64,000 nucleotides of DNA from assembly GCA_964035545.1 (NCBI GenBank), contig OZ037765.1, positions 16,120,995 through 16,184,994 on the forward strand, given 5' to 3'. The first letter of the stretch is position 1; each line of letters begins with the position of its first letter. This document shows positions 19,422 through 64,000 of this stretch, piece by piece. A model generated the notes under the pieces. It had not been told where the DNA came from. It did not search any database and saw only the letters and a program-made list of their open reading frames with translations. Source of the stretch: Bugula neritina (Eukaryota; Animalia; Bryozoa). Made by a program: the position numbers and the translations under genes.

Positions 19422-20109
19422 TTGGTTGTTTGTTAGATGCGTGGCTATACACTTCCTCGGTTACCTGCCAGATATGTTCATGTTTTTAGCTAGTATAAAA
19501 TTCATATGTAGAATAGTTTTTAAAGAAGGAGAAATGTTCCGATAACTTGAGATATTGGCTTTATTTGTGGTAAACTATTTGCTACATCCATGAGTTAGAT
19601 GATCAGCAATATCTACTGAAAGCTGGAACATTTTGAGGACCTACATTATTATTCATTTAAATTGTAAAACAATCTACACAGTTGCTGATTATTAATTTTG
19701 ATAACTGGGTTTTGGAAGAAATAGATATGTTGATAAAAGTAAAATATATGCATTGATTTCAATCTAACTTCGTTTTGACATTTGGTACCCTGTGTAGAAA
19801 GTAGCACTTTATACTAAAGCACACCAAGCACAGTCTGCTGGTATTAGCTAAAACATGTAATTATTATTATTTTAATGCAATATTGACAAGATATTAATTT
19901 TAAGAATTAAATACCATTTTACTCTGTTTTAAGAGTGATAATATAATTAAAGTTTGATTAATGGCCTATTATAACATCAATTGTTACATGACTTTTGTGG
20001 CCTGCAAGGGATTTATTACTTTAAGGATTGTTCTCACTTCTTCAGTTAGCTCTAACCAGTATTGTTTTCTTCGCAGCTATAAATCATTTTGGTATACTCA
20101 AAGACGGAT

Positions 20110-20793
20110 ATGCCGCCTCAACAACACTTGGTTGCTAAAATTGGCCCCTCTATCCTCAATTCTGATTTATCGAGACTCGCTGATGAATGTGACAGAATGG
20201 TGCAATCTGGTGCTGACTATTTACATCTAGATGTCATGGATGGAAATTTTGTGCCCAATCTTACATTTGGCCATCCAGTTGTAGCCACATTAAAACCCAA
20301 ATTTAAGGAGGTATTCTTTGATATGCATATGATGGTCGCAGAGCCCTTAAAGTGGGTGGAAAGTATGGCTGAAACTGGAGCTGAACAATACACATTCCAT
20401 TTAGAAGCTGCTGGTGGCCATACTGCTTCAGATATAATACGGAAAATAAAAGAAACTGGGATGAAGGCCGGAATTGCTATCAAGCCCAACACTCCAGTTG
20501 AAGCTCTATTACCATATTTAAGTGAAGTAGATATGGTGTTGATAATGACGGTTGAGCCTGGATTTGGTGGTCAAAAGTTTATGCCTGACATGATGCCAAA
20601 AATAAAAAAAGTTCGAGAAATGTTTGCTAATTTGGATATAGGAGTTGATGGAGGGGTTTCGGAAGCAAATATTGGTGAATGTGCGGAGGCTGGTGCTAAC
20701 ATGATAGTGTCTGGGAGTGCTATTGTGAAAAGTCAGGACCCTGCATCTGTTATAGCAAGTTTAAAGAAATCTGTTGAGAATGCTCTTGCATAA
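20110..20793 (+). CDS. RPE: Ribulose-phosphate 3-epimerase (intronless CDS)
   Basis: Motifs IGPSILNSD, YLHLDVMDGNFVPNLTFG, FDMHMMV, TFHLE, MTVEPGFGGQKF, VDGG and AGANMIVSGSAI; metal ligands intact. First ATG at 20110; a 5'UTR acceptor (TTCTTCGCAG) ends at 20077. Confidence 0.97.
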   Translation: MPPQQHLVAKIGPSILNSDLSRLADECDRMVQSGADYLHLDVMDGNFVPNLTFGHPVVATLKPKFKEVFFDMHMMVAEPLKWVESMAETGAEQYTFHLEAAGGHTASDIIRKIKETGMKAGIAIKPNTPVEALLPYLSEVDMVLIMTVEPGFGGQKFMPDMMPKIKKVREMFANLDIGVDGGVSEANIGECAEAGANMIVSGSAIVKSQDPASVIASLKKSVENALA

Positions 20794-26000: not shown

Positions 26001-29000
26001 TGTTGTTTATGTCCATGCAGATAAAACAACTTTGCTCTTGCCTATTTATAGAATTATCAAACTAACTTCGTTTTAATCTGATGGTTTGTGTTTGTTTCAG
26101 GGTTTGTAGTGCAATTTATCTCCTTTCCAGTGATCAGTGGTTTTACTTCTTCAGCTGCTATTTTGATAGCGTTCAGTCAAGTAAAGGTGAGGCTTAGTAT
26201 GTTTTCTTCAGCTTTGTGCAGTAGATATTCCACTTGGTACAGCAAATACCAACAACTAATTAATTAATTCATGTTAATACAGGCTTTACAATGTCTTGTA
26301 CAGGGAAACATAAGCTAATGACAATCTAATGACTGAGCATATGTTATTTATAGTAAACAATTTCAGTAGCATCTTTTAATTGTTTAAGCAGTATTATGTG
26401 ATACATTCATTGTAGAAATGGCTAGGACTAAACGGTGTTCCTAGAGCTTTTATTCCTCAAGTGAAAGCAACCTTCACAAAGATTCCAGAAACAAAGTATG
26501 TTCAGATAAATCATTTGTAGTCATTACTCTGAACATAAAACGTTCGTATTCACTATATTCAAGTGGTGATGCTAATTACAAAATTGTATGTTATGTTCAT
26601 TCAGCTTGTGGGACATGACTATGGGCTTGGTGTGCATAGTTATTCTTATCTGTATGAAGAAACTTAAAGAGTATGTTGATCCTAAACTCAAGATGGAGCT
26701 TCCAAAGTTTAAGAAGATTGTTTATAAGTTTGCTTGGCTTCTTTGTACAGGTTGGTCAAGTCTCATCACTGTTATGTTATTAGAAAATCGTTCTATAATT
26801 CTATCTTATTAGTAATTTAATATTTTTACAACTGCTCATTTACTTCTTTATGTTTCAGCTCGAAATGCAGTAGTAGTGATTGTGTGTGCGGGATTTGCAT
26901 CAATACTTGTTGACATCTATGGATTTAAAGTTGGTGGAAACTCTTTTCTCACTCTCACGGGAAATGTAAAAAGTGGAATACCCTCTCCCTCACCACCAAC
27001 ATTCTACATTCATCATTTTAACAATGACACACAAACCTCCATTACCAAAGGGCCAGGAGACATATTCTCTGTAAGTTTAGAGGCTGTTTGATTGTTCTGG
27101 CAAGAAACGTTCATGATGGTATTTATGTTTTTATTAATGAGGGAGGTTGAAATTTGTTTGATTTTATAGGATATTGGTGAAGGATTTGTTGTGGTAACCC
27201 TCATTGGCCTGTTGGAAAGCATTGCCATTGCAAAGACTTTTGCCAGGCGAAATGAGTACAAGATAGATGCTAACCAAGAACTCATAGCTATGGGTATTAG
27301 CAACAGCATCAGCTCCTTCTTCCATTCCTATCCAATTACAGGCAGCTTTTCTAGGTTAGCTCGCTATATAAAATGTTGTAAATAGTTTGTCTGACAAGAA
27401 TTTATTGATCTGCTATAACTATTTTGAGGGTTGAAATGTTATGTTTACAATTTTAGAACTGCCATAAACTCGCAGAGTGGTGCAAGAACACCAGCCAATG
27501 GTATATGGACTGGACTTACCGTCCTGTTGGCCATTGCTGTGCTTACTCCATATTTCTTTTATATTCCACAAGCAACATTGGCAGCAGTGATCATATGTGC
27601 TGTGGTACCTATGGTTGAATATGAGGTCATCCCCAAGCTATTTAAAGTTAAAAGTGAGTATCATGATTAGTATACTCTCATCTCCTAGTTTTTTTTTTCA
27701 AATGTGTGACTTCCTATTTTTCATAACACATGATAAATTGAATAATAATGTTGTAGTTTAGTTATATATAGAGTTTTTTTTGTTAGTCTAAGAATTGCAT
27801 TATATATTTGTTTAATAATTTCGATAAGATGAATTTATGTTGATTTAAATTTGTTGCAACTTTGTTAGAATGATGATAGTTTTTAGTGCATTATTTTAAT
27901 TATTCAATTTACAGAAGCTGATCTGCTGCCGCTCTTCATTACCTTTATTGTGTGCTTGCTGGTCAATATTGAGGTGAGAAGTGCTTATATTTTATCAAAT
28001 ACAATTTAGAGTTGAAGTTTGCAAGTTGTTTTTTGCTATGAAAAGGCTCTATCAAAGATGTCAAATATAGGTATATTTATTGTATTTATTTGAAATACAC
28101 AGTTATAAAAGCGCTCAAAAGCTAGAATATGAAGCCTATACTAATGCCCTTTCATAATGTTATTGAGCTCATAACCTTATAAGCATTTAAATTTTCAATC
28201 TACATATGCAGCTGTTGATTTTAAACATTTTTTGTATTATCTGTAGACACGGATCTGCTAAAGCTTCAATTTTAACTTCTGTGGCCAATTTTCTCAAATA
28301 CCTGATTTTTTAATTTGTAGTTTGGAATTATTTCTGGAGTTGGTTTTTCTCTGTTGATGCTCGTTTATCCCATGTCCAGACCAGGACTTACAATCAGGCA
28401 TGAGAAATCGTTGGATGTGGAAGCATTGCCAAATGATGAAACTATCAATGTATGTAAATAAATGTAGCTGACTTGCAACAGGTGCCATATTTAAATGTTG
28501 AATGTCTCTGAGTAAAAAATTATAATTTTGTCTAATTTTTTCACATAGTTAGTTTGTATGAGTTGCCAATTTTTAGAAGAATATTGACTTTTTAATTTGA
28601 TATACTTGTACAGAGTCCCAGAGAAGTAGTGATCATTTTTTTTCACAGAGTTTGAGTTTGTATGAGTTGCCAATTTTCAGAAGAATATTGACTTTTTAAT
28701 TTGATATATTTGTACAGAGTCCCAGAGAAGTAGTGATCATTTTTTTTCACAGAGTTTGAGTTTGTATGAGTTGCCAATTTTCAGAAGAATATTGACTTTT
28801 TAATTTGATATATTTGTACAGAGTCCCAGAGAAGTAGTGATCATTGAACCTAACCAAGGACTCAAGTTCCCTGGTATTGAGTACATAAAAGACAAAGTCA
28901 TGAAGCACGGCGTGTATGAGGAACCTGCAAAGGCTATTATTCTTAATGCTCAGCATTTTGCAGGATGTGATTACACAACAGTGCAAGGCATAACCCAAGT

Positions 29001-38735: not shown

Positions 38736-41700
38736 ATGGATAGCTTAGGTTTGTTATATATTTTATACATTTCATCGACAGTTGCAATAGGGAATTTTGA
38801 ACCATTTCTTCTTGCACTGAAAATTTGAAGAGTATAATGAAGATTTTATAATGTTGCTTTTATCCTGTGTACTTGGTTCATTTTACTTAAATTAGTACAT
38901 ACTGGAAATCTCAAGTTTTTAGCTATTTTTTACAATTTAGCCGCTAATGAACATGGGTTTTTGCCCAAAACTAGCAAAATATCAATAAATACACCTAAAT
39001 AATCAAGGTTCTTTTTAATTTTGCTTGGTTTTCCATGTTTTTTCTAATTACAGCTACTTTTGATTGCAGACCGTTACGGTTATTTCGCAGTCCAAATAAG
39101 CTAAATAAATAGGCACAAAACATCATGCAAAATTAAGAAGGACCTTGATTATTTAGGTGTATTTCTTGATGTTTCACTAACTTTGGGCAAAAACCCATGT
39201 TCATTAGCAGCTAAATTGTGAAAAATAGCTAAAAACTGGAGATTTGCAGTGTGTACAAAATTAAGTAAAATGGCCCACTTATTATTTCAGATGAGCTGTT
39301 AGCTGACCTACACAGTGCTACAAATTATATTAAGAATGAACAACAATCTTTCGCACCAACTCCAGGCAGTAATTTAAGTTCATTGTCTACATCTGCATTA
39401 GATGGACATAATCCTAAACATTATGTTGGTGACACACCACACCACCAGTTTTATAGCAATGATCAGCAATTATCTTCTCAGCGATTTAGTCCAAAAGGCA
39501 GGGTTAACACAGCTTCGGTGTCCAATAGGAATAGTGACAGGTATAGTGCTAGCTCTAATGGCTCTGGAGATATGCCTGCTCCCCCATTACCTCCTCCACC
39601 TAGTAGGGATGTCATAGAGGAAGCTAATATGGGCTTCAGCAGTGAGGTATTCATATATTTACCTATATGTGTATATAATATACTCACTTCTCATAATTAG
39701 AAAATATTTTGGTAATTTCTTATTTATATCTTGCCTTTAGAGAACTTGCAAGTAATTGCATGCATGCAAGAGTCACTTTTTCTTTAGCCACTGTATGAGA
39801 TGCAGAACTTGTCCTCCCGTGTACAGGATACTTCTCCCTCTAACCCTTGCCAGGATAATGCCGGTGGCTACTCTTACCAGACCAACAACCATCACAATCA
39901 CTCAACTCTTGGGGCTAACCTTTCAGAGCTAGACTATCTCCTCCAAGACCTCAACTCTGTTCAGTTTCTAGAAGAAATCAACCAACCTGCTACCAGTAAG
40001 TATGACATGTTGCATTCAGTTTCGAAGTGACATGTAAAATTATTTTGTAAAAATAAGCAGGTGTTGTATATGATAATATGCTACCTGCGCATGCCTAGAA
40101 GAAGCCAGTGGTTGTATCTTGCATTCAAAAGTTTTTAGGTGGTATAGCATTGCAGTAAAGCTACTGAACTGATCTGATTCCACAAATCATACCAGTATTG
40201 GTTGCTGGACAACCTATAGGATCTATTTAGGATTCAAAAAGCGTTTTCTTTAATAAAACTGAATGTCTGTTTCATTATCTATATTTAGATATAAAGTGAA
40301 AATGCAGCCCACAATTTATTGTGGACATAAGTTTCAGAGTTGGTAATTGTAGAGATTGCCTCTCTTATGTGTTTAATACATGACTAATGTTGAAGGTGGT
40401 GTGGAAGATGGTAGTGTTTTGTCTGATAAGACTGTCTCTTCAGCTAAAGTTCCCCCTCCTACTCTTCCTAAGCCTACACAGAAATCTTTACCCTCTTCCA
40501 GTAATGTTCATTTTAACAGTGCAGAAGACTTGGAAAGGTAGGCTTTGCTGCAATTATAAGAAAATAACTTATTGCAGGTGTAGAATATGTGTAGTATAAT
40601 GCAATATTTTGTATTAGTAATGGTTACAACACTGGCCTATCCTGGCTAGATATTTGCTAGATAATTTTCCAATCCTGGCAGAGTGCTTATTTTGTTAGAA
40701 CAAATACAGTGAAAAGTAGGGGTAATGCAGCCATGTTTTGATGTCCAAAAAGTTATTGTCTTTGGCTGTATTCAAAATGCTGTGTTCTAAATGTGCTAAT
40801 TCTGGATCTGCACGTCTACGCAGTATGCACTTAGCAGTTCCACAGCTGATTACACTTTTCTGTTGGATTGTGAGTCATGTGGTTGAAGTTCCAAGTTTTG
40901 CTGAATGTAAAGAATGAGGATGAAATAACTTGTGTACCATTGTCTGATTGAACAATTTGGAGAATGTCTAGTCTACTGAAGCAATTTTAAACTTTACTGA
41001 CTATTTTCACTGTTCCTTTGCTTCATAGACTCTCATATTCAAAATAGTCTACTGCAGCTAGATAATGGTTACCATGTTGTTAAAAAGATCTACTTCAACT
41101 TTAGTCATGGTGTTGTAGGTAACGAATGGGACCAATCCGAGTATTACATACATTTTCATGTATGGAGTCATTTGTTTTACTAATTTTTTAGTTTATGACT
41201 TTATGATAAATATTTCCTACTGTCTAATCCCTAGGCTAATACAAGAAGAATATTTACCTTATCACTTCCTATTTCGTAGGGATTCAAATCAGTTGATGCA
41301 GTGTTGGTGGTTTATCTGTGTTAATGTATTACTTATGTAGGCAGCAGGTACATGCATCCTCTGCTACACAAGAACTGGAGCATCTGATGGACTCGTTATC
41401 TCAGTTTCAGGTTGGTTAAATCTCTCCATCTACTTAGTATGTTACTGCCATGGCAAGCCTGTGTTTCAGTATTCTCTAAAGTCAAATATAATCATACATT
41501 GTTATTATTCAACACTATAATATATCTGCCCAGTGATCATTTCAAGGGGCTTATGTGGCATTTAATTTTGTATACAAAAGTTGAACCTCTGCTAATACTT
41601 TTTTCTCCTATATTATTATTAGTTAAATTTAAAGCTGTTACCAAGCACGTATTGCTTCAAATTTATATATATTCGTTTTTGATGTGTTCTTTTGAATCTT

Positions 41701-46151: not shown

Positions 46152-49021
46152 TATTCAGGTCTTGCATTTGGTTTTCCACAGCATTGGTATGATTATGCTA
46201 AAAATTTTACTATCACACTTTTACTATTTACGTTCTACTAACTAATAGGTTTAATATAGTTTGAATCATTTTATATTTTACTACTAATGTTGGTATACTT
46301 TTCAGCTCTCATATGCAAAAATGAAATTAAGCTATTTGATTTAACACACCCTTTGTTGATCTACTGTCACAATTATTGCTTAGCATTGTAAGTAATTTCT
46401 CTAGTTATTCTATTTCCTATTCAGGCAAGTTGTCTATTGTTTACTGCTTCACTATTTGAAAGCATCACTAAAATTCAGAGCTTTGCAACACCTCATAAAT
46501 TTTTGAATTTATTTAATGTAACATTTTTTACAATTTTTCCCTGTTATAAAAGAGCCAATTTTAATGGTTGCCACAGGATTTACTGGTATTCATGTTAAAA
46601 ATATCTGTCATGATGTTAACTAGCTGATTAGAAGTTGCACTTGGAATTACCTGTATAATTCTTTGTCACCAAGTTTCAGTTTTCAAATTTTACAACTGGA
46701 TGGTATGATTTGCTATTTTAATATTATGAGTGTTGAGGGAGTCAATGTTTTACCTTTGAAGTTGATCTATCATTGAGTAACGATAAAAATGTGTGAAGTG
46801 CTTACTGATTTATTTTGATATTAATGTTTCTTAATTTTTACCCTAATCATCTATATTATGATGTTGAGAATTAGTTTGCTACTGTCTCACTATCAGTCTC
46901 CTTGACAATACACTTTTTCTCTGATTAGTTTATTAGATTTTACATAAACCATTAGTAGAGTGATAGATTTCCTGATCTAATCAATATATATTTATACTTT
47001 ATCTTAACAGGGAATATAACTTTTATAAAAAATATTATAAAATGTAATCAATAAGTAACACAGTGTGGTTTCTGCACTTTATTTTAATTTTGTCTCTTTG
47101 AATCTCAAAAGACATCTCTGTAAAGTCTCGAGTTAGCAGGATTATTTTATATGTGCATAAATTTTCAACATAGCTGATAGCTAGTATATTTGAATTATGT
47201 TGAGATTATTTGCACATCAATAAAATAGTCTTGGCCATGGCCATGCACAGAGCTGAAAAACTACATATAGTAAGTAAACTTGGCTTGCGTAATTAAGAGC
47301 ATATAGTGAACCCTGGAGGATAGTCTAAATTCATAAAATTTAATTAAGCTTCACCAACAAATTGGGCTGTGTATTATACGTATAAGCACTTATGTCTTTA
47401 AAACAATGCTGGTGTTTTTATACTATTTTAATCGTGACTAGAGTCAAAATGCTTTTGGCTCAGTTATGTTTATAGAGGAAAACCCTAAAGCTTTGCTATA
47501 ATTTAAAATATATAAAATAATTACTATGCTTAAGCCACCCATTAGAACAAAGGTCTGGTGGTGCCTTACCTTTAAAGATCATGGGTGAATACTTCTTTGG
47601 TGTGTGCAATTTACCACAACGATACTAATTTCTTGTTAGAAAACTAGGACAAGCTGTTCTATACTGATTGAGTAAACCAGAAACACTAACACCAGGTATC
47701 ATCTTAAGTCTGAACAGGTTAATTATGACAGACCTAACACATTTGAGCTAAATGTATTGCTATTATAAAATTATTTCCTATCCAACTTTAGGCAACATTT
47801 TTGCTATCACATCAGAAAGTATGGAGGAAGCTTATAAATGATAGCAATGAAACTACAAGTCCAAAAAAAAGTTTCCCAACCAAACCATATGGGAGCAGTA
47901 GTGGAGAAGTTGAGATAGCCTAAGATCTTTAATGTTAATATTGAAATTTGGTTTGGGCTATGGGTCAGAATTTTTTTGAGAACATAACTTCTTTTGCTAC
48001 ATTTTTAATCTAGAATACAGGCTTTTCTCAATTTTCTCAATATCTCCATTACTTCACCTACCTCCACCAAGCGCACAAAGTGTTGCCATAACCAGTTGTC
48101 TTATGATAAAACCAACTCACAAAATCAAGATTACCTGCTTCTAATTCCTTTCCAGACCCTTTTACAGTTTAGTTTTGGCAGGCTCATAACACCTATTTAA
48201 AATGGTAAACTCAATATTTTATTATATATAAGAACCTTATGAACCTATATGCATGTTGCTCTAATTGATGCCATTGAAAAAATTTGACTACAGACTGCTA
48301 TGCTTCACACACTCACCTGTCTAAAGCTCTACTATTATCTTTGAGGAAATTACAGAACTTCAAGAACATAAAACTGCATGTATTTCTATTTTTGGTTTGT
48401 ATGCTGATGCATTCTTTACAAAACTTATAATAATAATCCCGTTTCTGTTCTTCATCCATGGTAGATTTTTTCTGTGACATCTAAAAATCAGTTTTAAGAA
48501 TATATAGAAATCAAGACATGCTATGATAGGTGGTTATAGAATAGCTGTTTATGGTTTAAATCAAAGATTTCTATAGTCAACTTTTTTAATTTCCTGGCAA
48601 TTAGCATCAAGAAAACATTCTGGTGCATATTTTTTGTGAAACACAAAGTTAAAAAAGGCTATAGAGAGAGATGTTTTTATAGTTGCATTTGAAGAAAACT
48701 GCATTTAACTAGAACTTTCAAAACATGAGAGAATTCACAAGGAAACCGAGGTAAAGTGCTTAAATTCAGATCAAAATGAGACACATGCATACAGGCATGA
48801 TTCTATAAAGAAAATATGCTATGAAAAATTTTAGCTCCAAGGTATAATAGTAATGCCATAAGATGCTGAAGTTTTTATCTGAGGCTAAATATTTGCAATA
48901 ATATACTGTTGTAGTTTTGTGCACTACTGAAGTGGGGTATTATTGTACACAAGAGTTACTGCTGCATGGTTCACTATGAGGTTATGAAAAGAACCGAAAT
49001 AGTTGACGTTTATAAAAGATC

Positions 49022-49355
49022 TGTATTGAATGTCTAATTAGATACAAATAAAGTCATCAATGGTCGCAAAAGAATATACACAATATTATCCTAGTCTATC
49101 TGACAGTTATCCTCTGACTGAAACTGTGTGCCGGAAGGCGCTATTTATATCCAGGAGGTGGATACTGATTGGCCAGTGGAAGGTTCCGGCGGTGTTGCCG
49201 CAGAGAGTGACTCGGTGCCGCTTGGAACTGTGGCATCGCTAACAGAGTTGTAGTCTCTTGGAACTTTATGCCTCATAATATAATACAATGTCACCTCTCT
49301 GCTGCAAGTACTTATGTAAGGGGTACTGGGGGGTATACTTCCCGCAGCCATTACA
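49022..49355 (-). mobile_element. Solo LTR related to the gypsy LTR at 54575-54910
   Basis: Reverse complement reads TGTAATGGCTGCGGGAAGTATACCCCCCAGTACCCC...CCGGAACCTT...CCAATCAG...TATAAAT...AATACA, collinear with 54575-54910; TG...CA ends. TSD not clean. Confidence 0.8.
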
Positions 49356-50490: not shown

Positions 50491-53400
50491 TATCAGCAGT
50501 ACATACCTGACTTTGCGGGGATAGCGCAGCTGGTAAATCGGCTCACCGCAAAGGGGGGACTAATGGCAGTGAACCGCAACTGAACAGCAAGCATTTGACA
50601 GCCTCGAGGGTTGCTTGCTAAAGCGATCGCCCTGGCCTACCCAAATCCTGCATGGGAATACATCCTAGACACTGATGCCAGTGACCACAATGTGGGTGCC
50701 GCGCTGTCGCAGATCCAAGATAGCCGGGAGGTAGTCGTTGCTTACTATAACAAAGCTCTCTTCACCGCTGAGAAGAATTATTGCACCACCAGAAAGAAGC
50801 TCCTGGCAGTAATTAAGGCGGTGAAACACTTCCGACCTTGTCTCTACGGTAGAATGTTCCGGCTGCGAACGAATCATGCCTCATTGATTCGGTTGTGTAA
50901 GAAGGCTGAACCTTCCAGTCAGGTCGCACAATGGCTCAAATTCCTGGCCGACCTTTCCTACCGGATCGAACAATGCAAACGGGCTAAACCGGTGACCAGG
51001 CGGAGGGTGCAGGCAGTGTCTCAACATTAAGAAGAGGGACGGAGGCCCCTTTAGTTTTAATGTGGAGGCACAGCCTGAAGACGGAGGCGGGTACAGCTAG
51101 AGGCATGGTCGACTAATGCCCGACAATTCTGCCAATGCTGCCAACCCCATTTTGGCTGATAGTGTCACTGAGCTACGGAAACTCCAGGAAACTTTGCTTG
51201 AGATAGTGGGCAACATTTACCTGACCAAAAAAAGAAAAGGCGACCCAGTGAGGAGGAGCAATAGAAGAAGTGTTCTGAGTTCCAGATGTTCTGCCGTCGC
51301 TGAGACTCCTTGCGGATCAACTCAGATAGGCTCTTGACCATCACGTTGGTCGCCACTGACAGACACCCAAAGCGGGAGCGGGTGGTCTGTTCCTTCGCCC
51401 TTTGTCCAGAGTTAATTTGGGACACACACAAGCAGGCCCACGCAAGGGTCCAGCGTGTGTTCACAAAGTTACAACTCCGGTGGTACTAGCCAAAGATGAG
51501 GCGTGACGTGCAGCTCAAAGTGAAACAGTGTGAAATCTGTCAGGCTAGCAAGCATGGCCAATCCCCACGTAACTTGGGGTGGCGAAGGCTGTGTGCTGGT
51601 CGCTCATAGCAGGTGGTCGCTGTTGATCTAGTAGGCCTCATGCTCCTGACACCTCGAGGCAACAGCTGGATCTTGATGCTCTCGAACCACTTTACTCGGT
51701 AGGCCGATGCCTTAGCTATACCAGACACATCGGCTCCAACAGTGGCCCCGGTGCTCGATCAGAATGTCTTCTGTTATCTAGGCCTTCCAAAACAGATACA
51801 TTTAGACCAAGGTGCCCAGTTTCAGTCTCCGCTCATGGGTGACCTCTGTCACCTCTGGGGGTGGGGGGAACCAGAGCGAGACTACCCCGTACCATCCTCA
51901 AGGTAACTGGGTTGTGGAACGCAATAACCGCATGATAGGAATGCGCTCCGGAGCCTGTTCCTCGGCCGCAGTCAAGAAGAATCGGATACGGTGCTCCCAC
52001 AGGTTATGCGAGCCTACCGCAGTACACCTCACACCAGTGCTTTAGAGACTCCCAACTTCTTGATGCTCGGTCAAGAGACACGAGTCTCTGACCACCTCAC
52101 CTACCACATTCCCGACCACAATAACTCCCTACATGAGTATGTGGGGGAGTTGGTAGAGCACATGAGGACTCACACGGTATGCGTCGAGAGAAGCAATGGC
52201 AGGTACAGAACGATGACTCTGACGAGCCCTCTATTAGCTGGGGGACTGCGTCTAGATGGCCAACTACTGCAGGCACTGCAGACAAGCGGCGAAATCACAG
52301 CCGACGTTCGTGGGACCCTCTCTGGTAGTCGAGGCTCTGCCCATTCATATGTTCAAGGTCGAACGCTCAGGACAGGTGTCTTTTCAAAATGAAGTTTGCT
52401 TGAAGCCATACTGGGCTAGCCCCAATGCGGTAGAGGCAGCACCGCCGTTGCTCGAGCTCAGGAGGCAGACGGAAATGCGAGGGTGGGTACGGCACGGACC
52501 CAAGTTTGAAGTGGTGGTGCCGCGAGACAATGATCTGATCAGAGACAGGCGGCCACCCCCTCCGCCAGAGGATCAACTGCCACCTCCAGAATCAGCCTCA
52601 GTCTTGCCACCCACTGAGCCTGACCCGGGCCAGAAAGTGAGGACCCCCCCTCTCCGAGGGCTGTCTCGACTCAAGCGGCTGAACAGGAACCAGTATAGGT
52701 TCTCCCACCCAAGCAACTCCTTCTGCGGTTCTCAGGAGCTCAAGGGCGGAGTCCCTGCTACTTCTCGAGAGAAGTCAGCGGTCGCGGCAACCTCCGCCAT
52801 ACCTGCGAGACATTGTCTGCGACTGCGTACAAAACAGCAGATAAAGGAGTCATGCAGCAAACACCGCAGGAAGTTGCTGCGGGCAATGTGGGAGCTGTGG
52901 GCCCGAAGGCAATGGTGATTTTTGCGAGGGCAGAGTTGTGGACGGAATTAATCTGCCAGCAGTACAAAATCCGAGAGCACGTACAGCAATATGCAGATGT
53001 AGTTAAGGCCAGACGTACGTTCCACAAATCACCACACTTCACCTCCAAACGTTCAAGTATGCAACTAAATACTGAATTTAAGGGTAAGTCAGTCAGATCT
53101 AGTATTCCTACTAATATGGAAACTGGTCTGTTATCAGTTCAGTCTGACTCCATTAACCTAGTTGAGTCGGACTTGCTAAAGACTTCGGCTACAGGTAATG
53201 GCGGCGAGAGCATGATAATGAAAAGCAATCTTCTAGATCTTAAACTGGTATTCATGACTCTCAGTCAGTCTACCTCACTGCCAACTGTGAGTGCGTAGTG
53301 AAAACGTTTGTGATTCTCAAACTGTACAGTGTCGGGTCTAACACGAGTCAGAGTGTTCAGATCCCTACAGGTCTCACACTGATTCTGCTCTTTTCAGATA

Positions 53401-54910
53401 CCACTCGACCTGCTGCCGTGAATGCCTCCATGCCACCCAAGCTTATCTGGGATGACAGCTTAGTGCCAGAGCAGCCACCCTCACCTCTCCTTCTACTGTC
53501 AGACTCCCTTCACAAACGATGGCGCTGGGTAGACCTGGTAACTGATCTCCAGATGCGGGCCGTTTGGGGGACATCAATAACACCTCTTGCCAGTTATGCC
53601 AAAAAACATTCAGTTCTACTCCTTACCTGAAGCGCCACGTGCACCGGCATTATACGGTGACTTTTTGTCCATGCAGAGTACATGATTATTACGAGCACTA
53701 TGTTGAGTGCCACCAGCTGCTACGGAGGGTATACCTTTCAAGTTGACAAGCTCATGTTCACGAAGTTTTTCGCCATCATCCAGCCGCTAATCAACAACAC
53801 AAGGGACATGACTGCCTTGTCCCAGGGATTTCCATCTACTCAGCCTATCACAGAGGGACCAATTCCAGCACCAGACCGAACATCGTTCATCTAGTCAGCA
53901 TCTTCTTGTCAGTCTCGTCCTCATCACCCAGCCCCCTCCGCTGTGTGGCAACCGACCCAGTGACAGCTGGACCATCGCCTCATTGGCAATCTTCTCCTCC
54001 AAAAGACGCCAGGCCCATTAAGAGGCCAAAGAGACACAATGATACGAAGGCTGACCGAGAGGTACCTGGTCCCTCAACCCCAGACTCCCAATGACTCCAT
54101 CTGCGAAGCTGAGCGGCATATCCATAAACTACAAATCGGGTTTGACCAGCTCGCACCCCAACTGTTGGCCACTACTAGCGGGCTGAACCAGCTAAAAGAC
54201 TACGTGGCCCGCCTAAAAAGGACACTCTGTAAAACCTAAAACCATCTGCCACCCGCTCCGGGCATGCATATATTTTATGTTGATACTTCATTTTTTTGTA
54301 TTTTTTTACTTTGTATTTTTCTTTTCTTTCTAACATAGCAGTTGCTTACTGTTGTTACAAGTCCCACTTGTTGACTACATTGGTCGAGCTGTGATACAAG
54401 GATGTCTCAAATTTAGTTCTTTCCAATATATTTTGTACCATAAGTTTTTATAATAATGTGTCTTTAAACTAGCACTTGTTAATATATAGTTTTTTTACAT
54501 TTACCAATACTTCCCTATGTTTTTGGATGTATCAGAAAGTGGGCTTTCTGCTGGAAGGAGGGGGGGGGGGGTGGTGTAGTAGTTGGGAAAATTATACCCC
54601 TCAGTACCCCCTGCTAAACACTAACAATATATTATGGTGCAACTATAGTCTCATGGACCACAACTCCGCTAGTCATGCCGCTTCTCTGTGCCGCACCACA
54701 CTACTCTTTACGGTGACACTACCGGAACCTTATCTTATCTAATCAGGATCAACCCCATGTATATAAACAATATCTTTTGGTGCCCACACCAGCCTAGACG
54801 ATGGTAGTTAAGCAGATAAGTTGACCTTGTGAAACGTTTTGCTAATTGTACTCTTTTCTCTCTTATACTTATATATGATTTTTATTGTGCGTAATTGAAA
54901 TACTAATACA
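50491..54910 (+). mobile_element. Ty3/gypsy LTR retrotransposon copy A (5'-truncated, decayed): RNase H, integrase, accessory gene, PPT, 3' LTR
   Basis: RNase H ILDTDASDHNVGAALSQ...NYCTTRKKLLAV; integrase HxHxxx..CxxC, VDLVG, YHPQGN..VERNN, AYRSTPHTS, FVGP; many stops and frameshifts; PPT GGAAGGAG(n) at 54553-54571; LTR TGTAGTAG...AATACA at 54575-54910. Confidence 0.93.
53059..54239 (+). pseudogene. Spliced accessory zinc-finger/coiled-coil gene of gypsy copy A (exon 53059-53083, intron 53084-53397, exon 53398-54239; frameshifted)
   Basis: ATG+7 codons+G|GTAAGT ... TTTTCAG|AT; GDINNTSCQLCQKTFSSTPYLKRHVHRHYTVTFCPC..., LSQGFPSTQPITEGPIPAP, terminal amphipathic helix; collinear with 61026-62178. 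Confidence 0.75.
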
Positions 54911-56415
54911 GTTCTCTCGATGAACAATCAACTGGTTCAGTGGATATGCAGTAATTATTGAGCACGCAATAACACCCTCAAGAATAGTGCACAAAACTGC
55001 AACACTATGGCTATTCTTATAAAACTTGCTACTCCATATTTATGGTAATAATTTGTTTTTCTTTAGAAAGAGTTACCATCAAAATTATGTGATGGCTCAC
55101 AGATCATATATAAGTATAGTAGAAGGAGGGAGTTCACCGTCCTCTTCTTTCCTTTTTATAGTTGGAGGCAGTCATGGCGTTTCTGCATCCCGCATCACGC
55201 GGATGCCACGTGGACAGTAACATGACAATTTTGGGCCCTCCAATCAGGATGGGGGATCCGATTATATCACGAGGGGCAGTCTGCTCCCGAGTCAGTTGTG
55301 ATCAGTTGGACAAGCAATAGACACTTATGTATAGTAATAGTATTGTATGGATTATTTATAACGTTGTTGTTGTATCTATCATATAAAATATATATCGTAT
55401 TATTCTCATGAAACAAACCAGTGAAGTCGATTGTATAGCTTTGAGTAATGTACTGAAAGACTGATACACATTACCCACACTTACTGAAGAAAGCATAACA
55501 GTGGTGGGATACTGTATATCAGAATGGCAGAAAACAACACTGGACTACACCCACAACAGACAGAAGGTGAGCGTGACAATAACGTTGTTCCCATAGACCC
55601 CATGGTAGAGGAAAGGGGGGGCCCATAGAGAACTAGTAGCTGACAGGTACCAATTGAAAGCCCCCAACTTCACGGGTGATGAAGAAGTGGAGCTGTTCAT
55701 ACGGGAGTTTAGTGATGTGATTGAGATCACCCAAGGGCCACCCCGGGTAGCACTGCTGAAGCTGAGAATGTCGTTGATGATTAAGGCCAAACCCTATGGG
55801 TTGGGACCTGACATTGACAGCATCTTTGCTTCGCTGCGGGCCCGTTTTGGCATCTCCGCCATAGATGCCCAGACCCGACTACAAAGACTGCGGGGTGACC
55901 CACGCACCACACTGCAAGAACATGCCACCATGGTGATGAAGCTGGTGCAGATCGCATACAGCGACCTGCCCCAAGCCAATCGTGAACGGTATACTTTTGA
56001 TGCATTTGTACAGTCCATCAACAACCTAGGACTCCACCACCAATTTCTGGCGAGGGGAGTCACGACGGTCGAGGGCGCACTTGCTGAAGGGGAAGCCTAT
56101 CTTCTGGCAAACCAGATGCATAAAAACCGCGGGGTCTCCCGCCAAGTGAAGTAGAACCGCCGGTCGCTCAAGACGACGCGGGAGCGGGACCCCCTACAAC
56201 TGCCGCCGTTGGACAGCTAACAGCCATATCGAAGGTCGCACAACTGACCGACATGATGGCCAAACTGTTGGCGGCAATTACACCAAAACCCCTGGAAGAC
56301 AATGCCTACAAGCCTTCACGGCCGTTGGCAAGACCACCGGGAAAACAACCAACCTTTGTTGAGAATGCAGAAACCCTGGACTCTTCCGCAAGTACTATCC
56401 TCTTCTATATCAGGG

Positions 56416-56461
56416 GTTAAACTACCGCGGCCCGCAGATGTTCTCGCCAACTGCGGGCCGC
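56416..56461 (+). promoter_or_regulatory. gag-pol -1 ribosomal frameshift signal
   Basis: Slippery-like G TTA AAC (56416-56422) followed after 4 nt by a perfect 11-bp stem GCGGCCCGCAG (56427-56437) / CTGCGGGCCGC (56451-56461); the protease frame is -1 relative to the knuckle frame. Confidence 0.7.
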
Positions 56462-59400
56462 AGATGAAATTCCCTGGGAAGAAGAAATGTGGACCGCCCA
56501 ATCGGGTGCCACGTACCACACCACAAGAGTGGCAGACATCGAGACAAGTAGGCAAGTGGCACCGCCCAGCTGTTACCTTCTCTATGCCACTCCACAATAG
56601 ATTCGATGGGTTGCCGACACTAGAGCCCGAGTGGGGGGCAGTACAAGGACAGAGCAAGACACCCTCTCCCCCACCAAGACGGCTTTGCAACCATCGCAGG
56701 CTACCTCGCCATAGACCCACAGCGAGAGAGGTGTCCCCTGCAAAGTTACGGCATGAACGGGGACTAAGGGTGCAGCCTCACAGAAACAGCTTTTTCTTAC
56801 CCAGCAAGCTAGAGGGTAAAGCTGTAACCTTCTTATTAGACTCCGGCCGCACCACAAACCTCTTAAATCGTCAACTCTTCGACACCCTCAGTGCTAGGGT
56901 CCGAGGCGAGATAGAACCATACACCGGGAATACGGCACCCTGGCAGATGGGTCGTGTATTCCCTTCTATGGTATAGTAGAGCTGACGGGACGTGTCTGAA
57001 ATCAGGCTATACGGGAAACGTTCATAGTCAGCCAACTCAAAGAGAACGCTATTCTTGGGATGCCGTTCTTGAAACGACACGGGTGTCACATTGACTTCAG
57101 TAAGTCTGCAATGGTGATGTCTGGGCGAGAACTCGCCTGTGTCGACAAGTTTAGTTGCCCCCTAGTGAGAGGCGTGCAGGTAATACAGAACTGTACTATA
57201 CCGGGCCGCTCCCAGGCCACTATTCACTGCAAGGTGAATTACAAACAGATATCGGGACTAGGAGTGGTGGAAGTTGCGCACAATAGAATCCAGCTCGCTA
57301 GCAGTTTAAACCAATTGACTGCGCGAGGAAAGATCTTAGTGCAGTGTGTCAACTCCTTCACGGAGTCGGTGGAGCTGCCGACCGGGTTCGTGGTGGGCCG
57401 CTTCCACTCTGTCTAGAAAGGAGACGTGGGACCGCAGTTGGGGGATACGACGGAGGAGTCCTAGCAACGCCCGCAAAAAGGGCGAAGGACCGTTCCACTA
57501 CACGTCAGGGAGTTGTACGAGGCAGGCTGCCATGGCTGCGCGAGCAACGAGGAACACCAGGCTATAACGAAGTTGCTGCGTGAGTACAATGACGTATTCA
57601 GCAGTGGAGATCATGACATGGGCCTAACACGGGTCACCCATTATGAGATACCACTAGCTGCGGGAACAGTTCCCATCCGGCAACCTACACATAGGTTGGG
57701 GTCAGAAAAAGAGAAGGAGGTAAGCCGACAAGTTCGGAATCTTCTGGACCGCGGCTTCATAGAGCCAGCACATAGTGCCTGGAGCTCGCAGGTCGTGTTG
57801 GTCCGGAAGAAAGATGGCAGTTGGCGGTTTTGTGTGGATTACCGCAAACTCAATAGCGTGACCATACAGAACGCTTACCCCCTACCCCGTATTACTGAAT
57901 TCCTGGACCCCCTAGCCGGCAGCAAGTACTTCAGTACGTTAGGCTTGTTGAGCGGGTACTGGCAGGTCCCTCTGAGTCCCGATGCCCAGGGGAAAACGGC
58001 ATTCATCACGCGAGACGATCTGTGGAAGTGGAAAGTGTTGCCGTTCGGGTTGACCTCCGCCCCGGCCACCTTCCAGAGACTGATGGAACAGGTCCTTAGC
58101 GGACTGCACTGGAAAACGCTGTTGATCTACCTCGATGACGTCATCGTGATCTCCTCAGCCTTCGCGGCTCATATTAGTCGTCTGAGGGAGGTTTTCGAAA
58201 GACTCAGAGGTGCCAGTCTGAAATTGAAGCCCTCCAAGTGCGTTCTGTTGCAGCCGGAGGTCAAGTACCTGGGGCACATTGTCGGCTGAAACGGCAGGGC
58301 GACAGATCCTGAAAAGGTACGGGCAGTGGAAGACTGGGTTAGCCCCCGGGATTTGACCGAACTCCGGGCATTCCTGGGTCTGGTAGGGTATTACCGACAA
58401 TACATACCAGATTTTGCGGAGATAGCACAGCCGTTAAACCGGCTCACCCCAAAGGGGGTAGCGTGGTAGTAGTCTCCGGTTGAACAACAGGCATTCGACC
58501 GTCTTAAGGATTGCCTGCTGGCTGCACCCGTCTTGGCGTACCCCGATCCCACTCGGGAGTACATCCTGGACACGGACGCCAATGACCAAAATATTGGCGC
58601 TGTGTTGTCACAGGTACAGGGAGGCCGAGAAGTAGTAGTAGCCTACTACAGCAAATCTCTCTCAGCTGCTGAACGAAAATACTGCGCTACCCGAAAGGAA
58701 TTGTTGGCAGTAATCAAATCAGTGAAACACTTCCGACCTTATTTGTACGACAGGGGGTTCCGGCTGCATACAGACCACGCCTGGTTGATTTGGTTGTGCA
58801 AGAGTGCAGAATCGTCCAACCAAGTCGACAGTTGGCTAAAAATCCTGGCTGAATTCTCTTATCGGATCGAGCACCAGCCGGGAGGAAACAGGGCAATGCG
58901 GATGGGTTAAGCCAGCGATCGGACTGAGGATGCAAGCAGTGCCTCGGTATTGAGAGGAGGGACGGAGGCCCCTCGTGATCTGATTTAGAGGCACTGGCTA
59001 ACCAAGGAACAGAGTATGACTGGGACCAGATCCAACTCAAATCGACGGTCGGAAAGGATACGGAGGCTGTGCAAGGCCTCCGTGCCAACCCTGTTTTGGC
59101 CAATAACGTCACAGAGCTGAGAAAACTCCAGGAGAATTTTCCTGGGGTAGTAGCCGACGTCTATCAGGCCAAAAAAGAAGGGCAACAACCCAGCGAGGAA
59201 CAACTGAGGCAGGAGTGCGCCAAACTCCGGCTATTCTGCCAGCGTTGGGACTCACTGCGGATCGGGGACGATGGGCTGCTGACTATCACATTGGCCACCA
59301 GCGGCAGACACCCCGAGAGGAAGAGGGTGGTTTGTCATGCTGCCATACGCCACAATTGATTGGAGATACCCACAAACAGGCTCACGCTGGAGTCTAGAGA

Positions 59401-61025
59401 GTGATCACCAAATTGCAACTCCGGTGGTATTGGCCCAAAATGGGGCGTGACGTGCGAATCAGAGTAAGACAGTGCAAGATCTGCCAGGCCAGTAAGCATG
59501 TTCATTTTCCTGGTGAAGCGGGCTGACAGAAGTTATATGCTGGACAGCCGTGTCAAGTTGTAGCTGTCGACCTGGTCGGACCCATGCCTCCAACTCTTAG
59601 AGGCAACAGCTGGATCTTAGTATTGACCAACTACTTTACCAAGTGGGCCAACGCCCTGGCTATCCCAGATGCGTCGGCCCCAACGGTGGCCCGGGTGCTG
59701 GGCCAAAACGCGTTTTGTTATTTCGGCCTTCCCGAATAGATACATTCAGACCATGATGCTCAATTCCAGTCTCATCTGATGAGTGACCTCTGTCACCTCT
59801 GGGGAGTAAATCAGAGCAGGACCACCCCTACTATCCACAAGGCAACGGGGTGGTGCAGCGCAATACCCGTATGCTGGGTGATGCACTCCGAAGCCTGCTC
59901 CTCGGCCGCAGTCAGGAGAAATGGGATACGGTACTGCCGCAAGTCATGCGTGCCTATCGTAGTACCCCACACACCAGTACTGGTGAGACCCTCCCCTCCA
60001 ATATCCTGATGCTCGGTCAAGAGACTCGACTCCCCAACCACCTTACCTACCATGTCTCTGAGCAGGATAACTCGGTCAACGAGTATGTTAGTGAACTAGT
60101 GGAACGGATGAAGACCGCACATGACATGCTGCGAAAGAAGCAGTGGCAGGTGCGGCGTGAAAACTCAGAAGAACCACCCTTCTATAAATAAGAGACTGGG
60201 TATGGATGGTCAACTACCGTAGGCGTCGCGGACAAGCGGCTAAACTACAGCCCAGGTTCGTGGGGCCCTATGTAGTAGTCGAGGCGATGCCCAACCATAC
60301 CTACATGATCGAGCGCTCAGGACAGGTGTCCATCTAAAATGAGGCTTGCTTGAAGCTGTATTGGGCCAGCCCCGATGTGGTGGGAGGGGCCCCCTGTTGT
60401 TGGAGCCCCGGAAGCAGACAGCATCACGCGGGCGACAGCGGCATGGACTCGAGTATGAGGTGGTCGTGCCGCGGGAGGAAGATCTGGTGAGAGACGAACG
60501 ACCGCTTCCCCCAGCAGAAGTGAGTCCGCCGCTTCCGGCGCCAGGTCAGTCATCGTCACTTCCGGGGTCCGGGCCGGGCCCAGAAGGGAAAACCTCCACG
60601 AAATGAGGGGCTCCGTCCAGAGAAATCAGAGAAAAACCAGCTACTAACGAGCCGGAAGTTCCACCAGTGGAACTTGATAGTCCACCGGTGAGTTCATCGC
60701 TTTCCTTAAAACGAGGACAACGTACCAGACAACCCCCTGCATATTTACAAAACTTCGTTTGTGACTGCGTTGAAAGCGGCAAGTATGTAAGTCCAGCGGG
60801 GTGCTATACGGGAAAACCACCAGTTAATTGTGGGAGTTGAACAATCGCGAGAGAAAGCGAAAATGACTTTTACGAGGGCGGAGCAGTGGGCGGAATTGAT
60901 CCGCCCAAGGCAAAAAAGTCCCAGTCACGTGCAACGAACACGCCGCTCAGCCTTTCCCTACGCTGACATTGCTAAAGGCAGACATATTCTCAAATCTTCT
61001 ACGCCAGTCTACCTGAACGTTGAGT

Positions 61026-62178
61026 ATGCCTGAAAATACCAAGTTCCAAGGTAAGTCTGCCTGGATCTAGTATTCCTACCTATGGAAACGAGTCTGTTAT
61101 CAGCTAACTCTGATTTAATTGATCCAATTGAGTCAAAGTTATGTCGACTGCGAATGACGACGAAGACATGGTAATGCCCGACGATCTTTTAGATCTGGAG
61201 CTAGACGCTATGATTTTTAATCAGTTTACACGCTCGGCCCCTGTCTCTCGAGTGCCTTATAAAAAGATTCATGACTCTCAGACTAGTAACAGTCGATTCT
61301 CATCATAATTATATCGTAAAGGTCAATTTCGTCCTAACAATAATTTTATTCTTTCAGGCGACACTCGTGCCTCCGATTCCCCGAGGATGCCTTCTCTGGA
61401 AATGGCGTGGGACCAAGAGTTCCTGCCACCTGTCACATCCAATTGTGTATTACCACACGCCTTAAAGTCTAAGCAATGTTGGACGGCGCCGGAGACGGAG
61501 CGGGGAGATATAGACAATACTACATGCTACCTATAACAACAGCACTTTACAACTCCCCACAGGCTGCGGGTACATATTCCCCATCACTATATAACGAAAT
61601 TTTGTTCCTGCGGAGAGTTCAGTTATCATAGGGACTACATCCTCAGACACCAGCGGACCATGAATTGCTTTCAGTGTTATATATATGACGTGGATGAAAT
61701 CTCCTACCCTAGATTCCTGGAATTAATACAGCCATTTGTCACCAACAAAGCTTGGCTAGAGAGACTGTCGCAAGGGTTTCCAGCCCCCAGACCAATTACC
61801 CATGGTCCAGTACCCAAGCCCCTGAACTATCAAGAACCTGGCACGACACGTGGAACATCAAGCTCCATCTCTCTTCCCCAATCCCTTCTTCGTATTTTGT
61901 TACAACGTGTAGAGACCTAACCTTCCAGACCGCGACAAATTAGACGTTCACCTTCCCCCTTGTTTCCTCCGGTCCGCAAGAGACGGTGGAATTCCTCATC
62001 TCCTGCCCGCCTACCTTCCTTAGCATGGAATCTGCAAGAAATTGAGCTCCGTGCAAGCAAACTGGAAGGAGAGGTCCATCGGCTCGCTCCTCGGATAGCA
62101 GCTGCTGCTAGTGATTTACATGCCCTAAAGGACTCCGCTGCCAAACTCAAACGATCAGCTCGTGACGATGCTAGATAG
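61026..62178 (+). pseudogene. Spliced accessory zinc-finger/coiled-coil gene of gypsy copy B (exon 61026-61050, intron 61051-61357, exon 61358-62178; internal stops)
   Basis: ATG+7 codons+G|GTAAGT ... CTAAC..TTTATTCTTTCAG|GC; GDIDNTTCYL*QQHFTTPHRLRVHIPHHYITKFCSCGEFSYHRDYILRHQ..., LSQGFPAPRPITHGPVPKP, C-terminal LQEIELRASKLEGEVHRLAPRIAAAASDLHALKDSAAKLKR. Confidence 0.78.
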
Positions 62179-62543
62179 TCTTTCGCTCCTGTGTGGGGCT
62201 TCCGGTCTGTGTGACCCATTTTCTCTTTCTCTACCTCCACATCCAGGACTGTCTGTGTGATGCCCCTCTTGATGGTTGCTGATGCCTGTTAGACTTTATG
62301 CCGGGTTGCCCGTTACATAGTCTCTTAAGTAATAATATATGTTTTTGTATATATATAAATCTGTACATTAACTTCGGATGTTACCCGTTCTTTCTTTTAT
62401 ATATCATTTTTTATATACATATATTTATGGTTTTACTATCCGTAGTGCTCATATTTTTTTTATGTATATACGTAGTAAATATTCTTTTTTGTTTTGTGAT
62501 GCACTTCCCCCCACCGTCATGTTAGCAGGAAGTTGGCTCCCTG

Positions 62544-62628
<85 letters not shown>
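62544..62628. repeat. (TA)n microsatellite, ~85 bp
   Basis: Direct reading; lies at the truncated 3' end of gypsy copy B. Confidence 0.95.
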
Positions 62629-63289: not shown

Positions 63290-63301
63290 GACGTTGTTGA
63301 C

Positions 63302-64000
63302 ATGGCGGACCAAAGTTGTCGTGAAAATGAAAGTGGTGATGATAGTTTATCTGCTTCGCCTCAATCTACAGTCAATACTCAACCGCTTAACTCATGGCTC
63401 CAAGTGTCAATCAAAGAATCTAGTCGGCGTACTACTACCTCACTGAAAATACAAGACTCGTTTGTGGTGTATTTAGTAGAAACTAAAGTATTGGATCAAT
63501 TGAAAATCTGCCCTGAATGGCAAGAGGTACCAATAACTGTTTCGGGTTCAGATTGTGCTTCTACTTCACTAGTGGTTGTTTGGAGAAGATACAGTGAATT
63601 TGATTTGTTACGAGACTACTTATTGGATGCATTTCCATCGGTAGTTATTCCTTCTCTTCCTGGAAAACGAGTCCTCACACCATGGCAAGCAGCGGCTTTA
63701 GATAAAAGTGACCCAGAATTTGTTGAGAAAAGGCGGGTTTCTTTAGAGCAGTTTTTAAAGAGGCTTTGTTGTTTACCAGACATGTCTTCAGATCCCATTC
63801 TCTTGGCTTTTTTAAAAACTGACGCTGATTGGAAGAAGATGGTCCATTCGAAACAGCAGTTATTAAAAGATTCACGTCTTAAGGCACTAAGTGCAGCTTA
63901 CAGAATCAAACGCCCCAACGAAAAGTTTGAAGCCATAAGAAGATATGCTAATGAATTAGAAGGGCATATTGGAAATTTGCTTAAAATTAGAGCTAAAGCT
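63302..64000 (+). CDS. SNX4: Sorting nexin 4 (PX domain and start of BAR region; 3'-partial)
   Basis: Open frame to the window end: FVVYLVETK...VWRRYSEFDLLRDYL..FPSVVIPSLPGKR...DPEFVEKRRVSLEQFL...DSRLKALSAAYRIKRPNEKF, matching the PX signature and the SNX4-typical DSRLKAL segment. Confidence 0.88.
   Translation, partial: MADQSCRENESGDDSLSASPQSTVNTQPLNSWLQVSIKESSRRTTTSLKIQDSFVVYLVETKVLDQLKICPEWQEVPITVSGSDCASTSLVVVWRRYSEFDLLRDYLLDAFPSVVIPSLPGKRVLTPWQAAALDKSDPEFVEKRRVSLEQFLKRLCCLPDMSSDPILLAFLKTDADWKKMVHSKQQLLKDSRLKALSAAYRIKRPNEKFEAIRRYANELEGHIGNLLKIRAKA

Follow-up and report, generated by a model that had tools for sequence, protein, structure and literature searches.

The window, that is, the whole 64-kb stretch of DNA that was analysed, is AT-rich and animal-type apart from a GC-rich block at ~50.5-62.5 kb. 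This block consists of two related elements, A and B, whose pol regions are 69.7% identical across 2109 nt. Their features are given in map order.

50497..52920, +, element A pol, 5'-truncated (RNase H, integrase), a nucleotide match to B
53059..53083, +, exon 1 coding part of A, equal to that of B in length and phase
53084..53397, +, A intron, 314 nt, with GTAAGT donor and Y6CAG acceptor
53398..54239, +, exon 2 of A, disrupted by frameshifts and stops
54553..55004, +, A polypurine tract (54553-54574) and 3' LTR (54575-55004, TG...CA)
55115..55500, +, putative 5' LTR of B, ending in CA, start uncertain, with CCAAT- and TATA-like motifs
55502..55513, +, PBS-like motif of B, directly 3' of the LTR's CA
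55524..60840, +, B gag-like region and pol (protease motif, RT, RNase H, integrase), with many stops and frameshifts
60866..60935, +, putative internal promoter of B (GC boxes at 60876, 60888 and 60901; CACGTG at 60926)
61026..61050, +, exon 1 coding part of B (ATG, 8 codons and 1 nt)
61051..61357, +, B intron, 307 nt, GT-AG, with GTAAGT donor, pyrimidine tract and CAG
61358..62178, +, exon 2 of B, encoding an acidic/Pro leader, a C2H2 + C2HC domain, a Pro-rich linker, a basic S/P patch and a coiled coil
62179..62544, +, B 3' UTR, broken off by a (TA)n tract at the position of A's PPT and without a 3' LTR

The pol of B, which ends with a stop at 60840, matched Pfam families PF00078 (E 6e-33) and PF17919 (E 4e-33). 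Among solved structures, its RT was closest to that of Ty3 (E 1.5e-47; next family, 8.5e-27), and the order PR-RT-RH-INT together with this Ty3-like RT identifies a Ty3/gypsy element. The gag-like region had no Pfam match and is labelled by its position. LTR, PBS and PPT were found across the copies, with both LTRs in neither A nor B. The PBS-like motif of B is presumably tRNA-Ala-like. The putative 5' LTR of B contains CACGTG at 55207 and matched the A LTR weakly; the A LTR was 71% identical (292/413 aligned) to an inverted solo LTR. This related solo LTR lies at 48907-49355 on the minus strand, with a near-matching 4-nt flank pair. A and B are dead, decayed copies.

The 3' LTR of A and the putative 5' LTR of B (54575-55500) are separated by a gap of only ~110 nt. 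The two elements are diverged relatives inserted head to tail, which may reflect preferred targeting of this site or a cluster of TEs. Elsewhere, the window contains a single-frame ribulose-phosphate 3-epimerase gene (20083-20793, +; PF00834, E 1e-68), a 104-nt unit present three times in tandem (28536-28847) and a MITE-like inverted repeat (38874-39277; arms of 159 nt, 87% complementary, 86 nt between them). An uninterrupted, sorting-nexin-like ORF with a PX domain (63290-64000, +; PF00787, E 5e-20) lies ~660 nt past the (TA)n tract that ends B. A link between the accessory gene and this neighbour was considered and rejected (E 0.17).

An accessory gene in the env slot

The gene lies between the integrase and the PPT/LTR. 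Its position after the integrase in both Ty3/gypsy copies, with the Ty3-like RT of B, bears out the original prediction that the ORF belongs to gypsy elements. The association of the domain with elements was seen in these two copies; searches for the DNA around relatives gave 64, 86 and 13 pattern matches, none of which was confirmed. The product had also been held not to be an Env, and we agree: across five proteins, no hydrophobic segment was long enough. Specifically, no 19-residue hydrophobic stretch was found (maximum Kyte-Doolittle value 0.52 in B and 0.49-1.13 in four relatives), and hydropathy gave no signal peptide with transmembrane anchor in any of the five. No viral fusion-protein family or fold was present among the matches listed in the Pfam and fold searches. 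The gene is non-Env and takes the position of env in this Ty3/gypsy family.

Exon 2 of B is a single frame with in-frame TAA codons at 61534 (inside finger 1) and 61918 and its end stop at 62176. A contig in one DNA-like sequencing run, which may be the window's own source, was identical to 60667-62535, so assembly error does not account for the stops of B there. In A, the motifs of exon 2 are scattered over three frames, which implies several frameshifts and stops. The B exon 2 protein matched the A pieces at E 4e-14 and 2e-9, which is not chance. The shared motifs listed in the original prediction, namely GDI.NT.C, HY...FC.C, VD, IQP, LSQGFP...PIT.GP and the C-terminal heptad helix, were all present in both copies, although the pattern is a composite and neither copy is intact. 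The basic motif is RKRR in B and KRPKR in A, the latter out of frame with A's helix.

Exon structure and a candidate internal promoter

The start of the ORF at 61358 is a predicted splice acceptor, and the ORF would be exon 2 of a two-exon gene, a structure seen in the sequence and in one natural joined form. Donor and acceptor are phase-matched (phase 1) in both copies. GTAAGT and Y6CAG are each unique in 4080 nt of A and occur three and four times, respectively, in 7040 nt of B. The B intron also contains a CTAAC branch-like motif at 61334 and an inner ATG at 61082 with an acidic reading stretch. In the joined form, P0162 (a JGI protein from a 7,886-nt contig), the N-terminus is the exon-1 peptide fused directly to exon 2. 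It was the single joined form or cluster among the proteins compared. Its source could be an RNA contig or a processed copy; a spliced gene model is less probable. Sixty-two relatives read through the intron, and their acceptor residue pair fits YAG|G in 61/62; in a third subfamily, acceptor-compatible residues were found in 30/30 motif-matched members. None of the five joints listed among 77 contigs of the DNA-like run mentioned above matched the intron.

Between A and B, intron identity by codon position was 0.61/0.67/0.61, without codon periodicity, and pooled pN/pS was 0.70 (0.47-1.07). The intron is conserved at the nucleotide level (pS 0.48, compared with about 0.8 for exon 2), with 81% identity at its 5' end. 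This conservation, and the keeping of a consensus sense-strand intron in the 62 read-through relatives against one joined cluster, would suit an RNA regulator resembling CERV or Rev. Such a protein would bind the retained intron of genomic RNA and license export or block splicing, so that intron-containing genomes are packaged. A conserved retained intron poses the export problem that CERV is described as solving in Cer1 (PMC10309623), and the Arg/Ser/Pro patch may fit RNA handling. However, conserved RNA structure in the intron was not supported (z 0.16 in B and -2.11 in A; 0 Rfam matches). Furthermore, the fingers are classical beta-beta-alpha, unlike the Cys loop and G-like domain of CERV, and the CERV exons are shared with gag whereas this gene has its own post-pol ATG. 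We consider an RNA regulator of this kind unlikely.

An acidic stretch of ~25-27 intron codons showed a coding-like pN/pS of 0.44 (CI 0.22-0.72, 27 codons). Its BLOSUM scores were -0.15 for shared variants vs -0.62 for singletons, and it weakly matched three distant relatives (E 0.003-0.013, among 289). This coding-like signal keeps a retained-intron isoform in play. The main product could then be an unspliced ~365-aa protein that starts at the intron ATG and carries an acidic activation segment, with the spliced short form providing an activator/repressor switch. Many relatives have an open intron that continues in the frame of exon 2, and 26 selected proteins aligned over 96 columns with 0 internal gaps. 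However, the other 71 intron codons showed no protein-level constraint, either in the A/B comparison or in the variants of relatives, and gene callers favour open frames. In addition, the B intron has a stop and a shift, that of A is out of frame, and the intron-encoded segment was predicted with pLDDT <50. A long main product is in our view quite improbable; the idea is compatible with the CERV-like reading as well as with the anti-silencing and Tas-like readings set out below.

Three of the seven GGGCGG motifs in the window fall within 31 nt, between the pol stop and exon 1, a clustering reached in 0/2000 simulations of B. The block of GC boxes and E-box was 72% identical between A and B, as against 57% for the integrase tail, and the GC boxes of A are degenerate. 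We infer that this block may act as an internal promoter. In neither copy was a convincing motif common to the LTR and the internal region found, the shared words being AT-rich 8-mers only. A TATAAA at 61258-61263 in the B intron, which is read as RVPYKK in many relatives and is degenerate in A, could be a second internal promoter.

A double-finger domain, its relatives and selection

The first relative search returned 51/1059 candidates at E<=0.01; successive searches gave 51, 84, 112 and 91 overlapping matches, and the relatives total >250. The collected set comprised 289 proteins of <1000 aa, of which 162 have the eight-ligand pattern intact. One of the 84 matches, the repetitive 6743-aa P0101, was spurious and was removed from all analyses. 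The eight zinc ligands were retained in 83-91 of 87-92 relatives per column. Finger 1, interrupted by a stop in copy B, is C-x2-C-x12-H-x3-H with a beta-beta-alpha fold. Finger 2 is C-x-C-x12-H-x5-C (C2HC) with a 5-residue linker, rather than a second C2H2 finger with a canonical linker. The expected tandem C2H2-like fingers were thus borne out as two fingers with a C2H2 first member, but the second is C2HC. Both are embedded in a compact ~120-residue domain.

Predicted models of intact relatives begin with a disordered leader, have a core with pLDDT >90 and end in a 46-residue helix, with a disordered Pro-rich/basic linker between core and helix, in keeping with the long C-terminal heptad helix originally described. 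Its d positions are Leu-rich and its a positions Ile/Val-rich, a combination that favours dimers. A coiled-coil homodimer prediction, run without an alignment, reached 0.18, where the mark is 0.32. Of the 82 relatives long enough to test, 75 have a basic cluster after the domain, which upholds the suggested NLS-like patch. The N-terminal 25 residues encoded by exon 2 carry a median net charge of -5 (n=62). We rejected a bZIP assignment: a bZIP requires a set spacing of basic region and zipper, and here a Pro-rich gap separates the two.

No family reached its Pfam cut-off, consistent with the earlier view that the protein belongs to no described family. P0017 had no Pfam match at E<=0.01, and PF00096 and PF13894 (zf-C2H2_4) were matched at E<=0.01 by only 6 and 9 of 104 members. 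The fold search gave no match at E<=0.001 in the PDB or among viral models. In a wide fold search, the full model retrieved generic helices (Z<=5.7) and the core reached Z<=3.5. The finger pair overlaid DNA-bound tandem C2H2 pairs (rmsd 2.5-2.8 A, 50-57 residues) at Z 3.2-3.5, which lies within the noise range; any finger pair may score so. No solved fold matched the whole domain, the flanking helices being unmatched; the weak fold match proves neither kinship nor a new fold. A PDB sequence search matched finger 1 and nothing else, and the ESM Atlas returned generic C2H2 or unnamed clusters (P0017 0.90, below the recognition mark; core 0.95, unnamed). Compared with classical C2H2 proteins (PF00096/PF13894; Kaiso, ZBTB, SALL), finger 1 matches and the pair overlays tandem fingers, whereas the sub-threshold Pfam scores, the C-x-C/H/C of finger 2, the lack of a TGEKP linker and the unmatched helices set the domain apart.

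The relatives that carry names are bryozoan only. XP_067940964.1 from Watersipora subatra (E 2e-36) and KAF6037488.1 from Bugula neritina both have the whole domain and the C-terminal helix, but are 30-38% identical and lie outside the element-borne clade. The domain is therefore not exclusive to these elements: the proposal of an element-encoded accessory protein holds for both copies, although named bryozoan proteins also carry the domain. In a midpoint-rooted tree of 45 domains from 43 hand-picked proteins (P0087 was left out, its motif missing), the B-like, A-like and P0100-like sequences, the last being the third, high-copy subfamily, fell into a single clade (99/96) whose internal branches are deep, and outside it lay the named Watersipora and Bugula proteins. 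The tree gives no direction of transfer, as it is midpoint-rooted and has no genomic context. P0135 and P0132 share a near-identical 60-residue N-terminus with KTE/KVE and have differing finger-domain versions, which resembles a family of host genes or the use of alternative exons. P0056/P0130 and P0078 contain the whole double-finger domain twice in tandem.

Selection was assessed on a protein-guided A/B codon alignment in which the finger-domain and coiled-coil segments are nearly gapless. Over these 145 codons, pS was 0.81, pN 0.39 and pN/pS 0.48 (95% CI 0.39-0.60), a ratio that understates constraint because synonymous sites are saturated; identity by codon position was 0.54/0.65/0.34. The pol controls gave pN/pS of 0.22-0.40. 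Among 110 close relatives, core variants shared by >=4 relatives had a BLOSUM score of -0.06 (n=151), against -0.91 for singletons (n=204). The low A-B ratio and the conservative shared variants agree with the past purifying selection proposed from the sequence, and neither of the two outcomes named as refuting was seen: pN/pS is well below 1 rather than near it, and the deep A-B divergence argues against a recently captured host fragment.

A captured host transcription-factor gene, taken up with its promoter and intron, could also have persisted as a passenger or as host-beneficial cargo with no role in the element cycle. The putative promoter of its own, the ATG and the intron resemble a cellular gene, and the domain occurs in named Watersipora and Bugula proteins, one of which has two copies and one KTE/KVE (SUMO-like motifs). 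However, purifying selection was maintained through synonymous saturation, and the element-borne clade (99/96) is deep-branched and separate from the named proteins. A functionless passenger would also be expected to decay, and one round of retrotransposition would remove an unneeded intron. We regard this origin as very unlikely.

The protein evolves faster than pol (A-B pN 0.39 vs 0.16). Such fast divergence outside the ligands, combined with a nuclear signature, is one argument for an anti-silencing or chromatin-targeting factor that would bind element DNA or a host chromatin protein and counter methylation or piRNA, or tether integration. VANC is the comparison for the anti-silencing reading. 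CpG o/e was 0.33 in host DNA, which is depleted, vs 0.77 in B pol, but CpG content may mirror age alone. No chromatin-reader or enzyme domain was found in the Pfam and fold searches, and packaging for integration targeting would be poorly served by an mRNA that is separate from, and unlinked to, Gag-Pol. This reading seems to us distinctly unlikely.

A possible Tas-like regulator

The gene layout appears most similar to that of foamy virus Tas, an accessory regulator driven by an internal promoter (PMC7390438). As in Tas/Bel-1, a regulator would lie behind the structural genes with an internal promoter, here an inferred one; Tas, in contrast, belongs to Retroviridae and has established DNA binding and transactivation, whereas the present gene is known from sequence (PMC7390438). 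No link to Tas in sequence or fold appeared among the matches listed. On this analogy, our preferred reading, which we hold with about equal belief and doubt, is that the two-exon env-slot gene encodes a nuclear double-zinc-finger DNA-binding regulator that would switch on element promoters. The cluster of GC boxes and E-box past the pol stop would drive an mRNA independently of the LTR, in which exon 1 would be spliced to exon 2, as the sequence and P0162 suggest. The rigid domain is predicted to present the C2H2 and C2HC fingers, the basic patch to mediate nuclear import and the heptad helix to oligomerise the protein. At the LTR, the internal promoter or both, the acidic leader would bring in the transcription machinery, and the intron may persist in genomic copies because of cis-acting sequence that it carries.

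Several observations count against a regulator. A pair of fingers is a small number for specific DNA binding, and finger 1 has Val at helix position 6, unlike most base-reading fingers. The lack of a motif common to LTR and internal region, the degenerate A boxes and the weak fold scores also weigh against it, as do the named bryozoan proteins with the domain, which look like host genes. A broader scenario, which we hold to be conceivable though rather doubtful, is that a complex Ty3/gypsy lineage in bryozoan-like invertebrates evolved, independently of foamy viruses, an internal promoter and a spliced, sequence-specific transactivator with a new domain and an intron-toggled acidic segment, later domesticated by hosts.

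In the C. elegans element Cer1, gRNA export needs CERV, a nuclear Cys-rich protein that is made from a spliced mRNA and has a leucine zipper and an NLS (PMC10309623). CERV resembles the present gene in being Ty3/gypsy-encoded, with a spliced mRNA, a Cys-rich metal site, a leucine zipper and a basic NLS, but it has 517 aa, five exons, an overlap with gag and H/M/G domains (PMC10309623). The present gene has its own ATG instead of gag-shared exons, and its model contains no G-like domain. Tor elements use internal promoters for env (PMC4402516); Oikopleura Tor3b/4b likewise have an internal promoter in or after pol that drives a 3' gene, but the product is a membrane glycoprotein and the mRNA is unspliced (PMC4402516). 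Non-env ORF3s are already a known kind (PMC5408684, PMC5718144). Those of bdelloid LTR retrotransposons are also family-specific ORFs after pol, but those described are env-like, GDSL or DEDDy proteins (PMC5408684, PMC5718144), and the main text of the bdelloid ORF3 paper does not contain 'zinc' or 'intron'. Likewise, 'zinc finger' is absent from the main text of an env survey covering Bryozoa (PMC13524379). None of the papers listed by the literature searches described this zinc-finger family. For self-encoded regulators of Ty3/gypsy elements, the searches returned CERV as the sole characterised case, and none that combined zinc fingers with an intron of its own and a promoter-like block after pol.

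Judged from its sequence, the long-maintained two-exon accessory gene is real, and its zinc-finger family appears uncatalogued. Prokaryote-style gene calls in metagenomes mis-model the gene as 365 aa through intron read-through. Self-encoded regulators are a hallmark of complex retroviruses; if the Tas-like reading is true, env-less retrotransposons would also have evolved such a control circuit, and a new double-finger domain common to elements and host genes would offer a case for tracing zinc-finger traffic between them.
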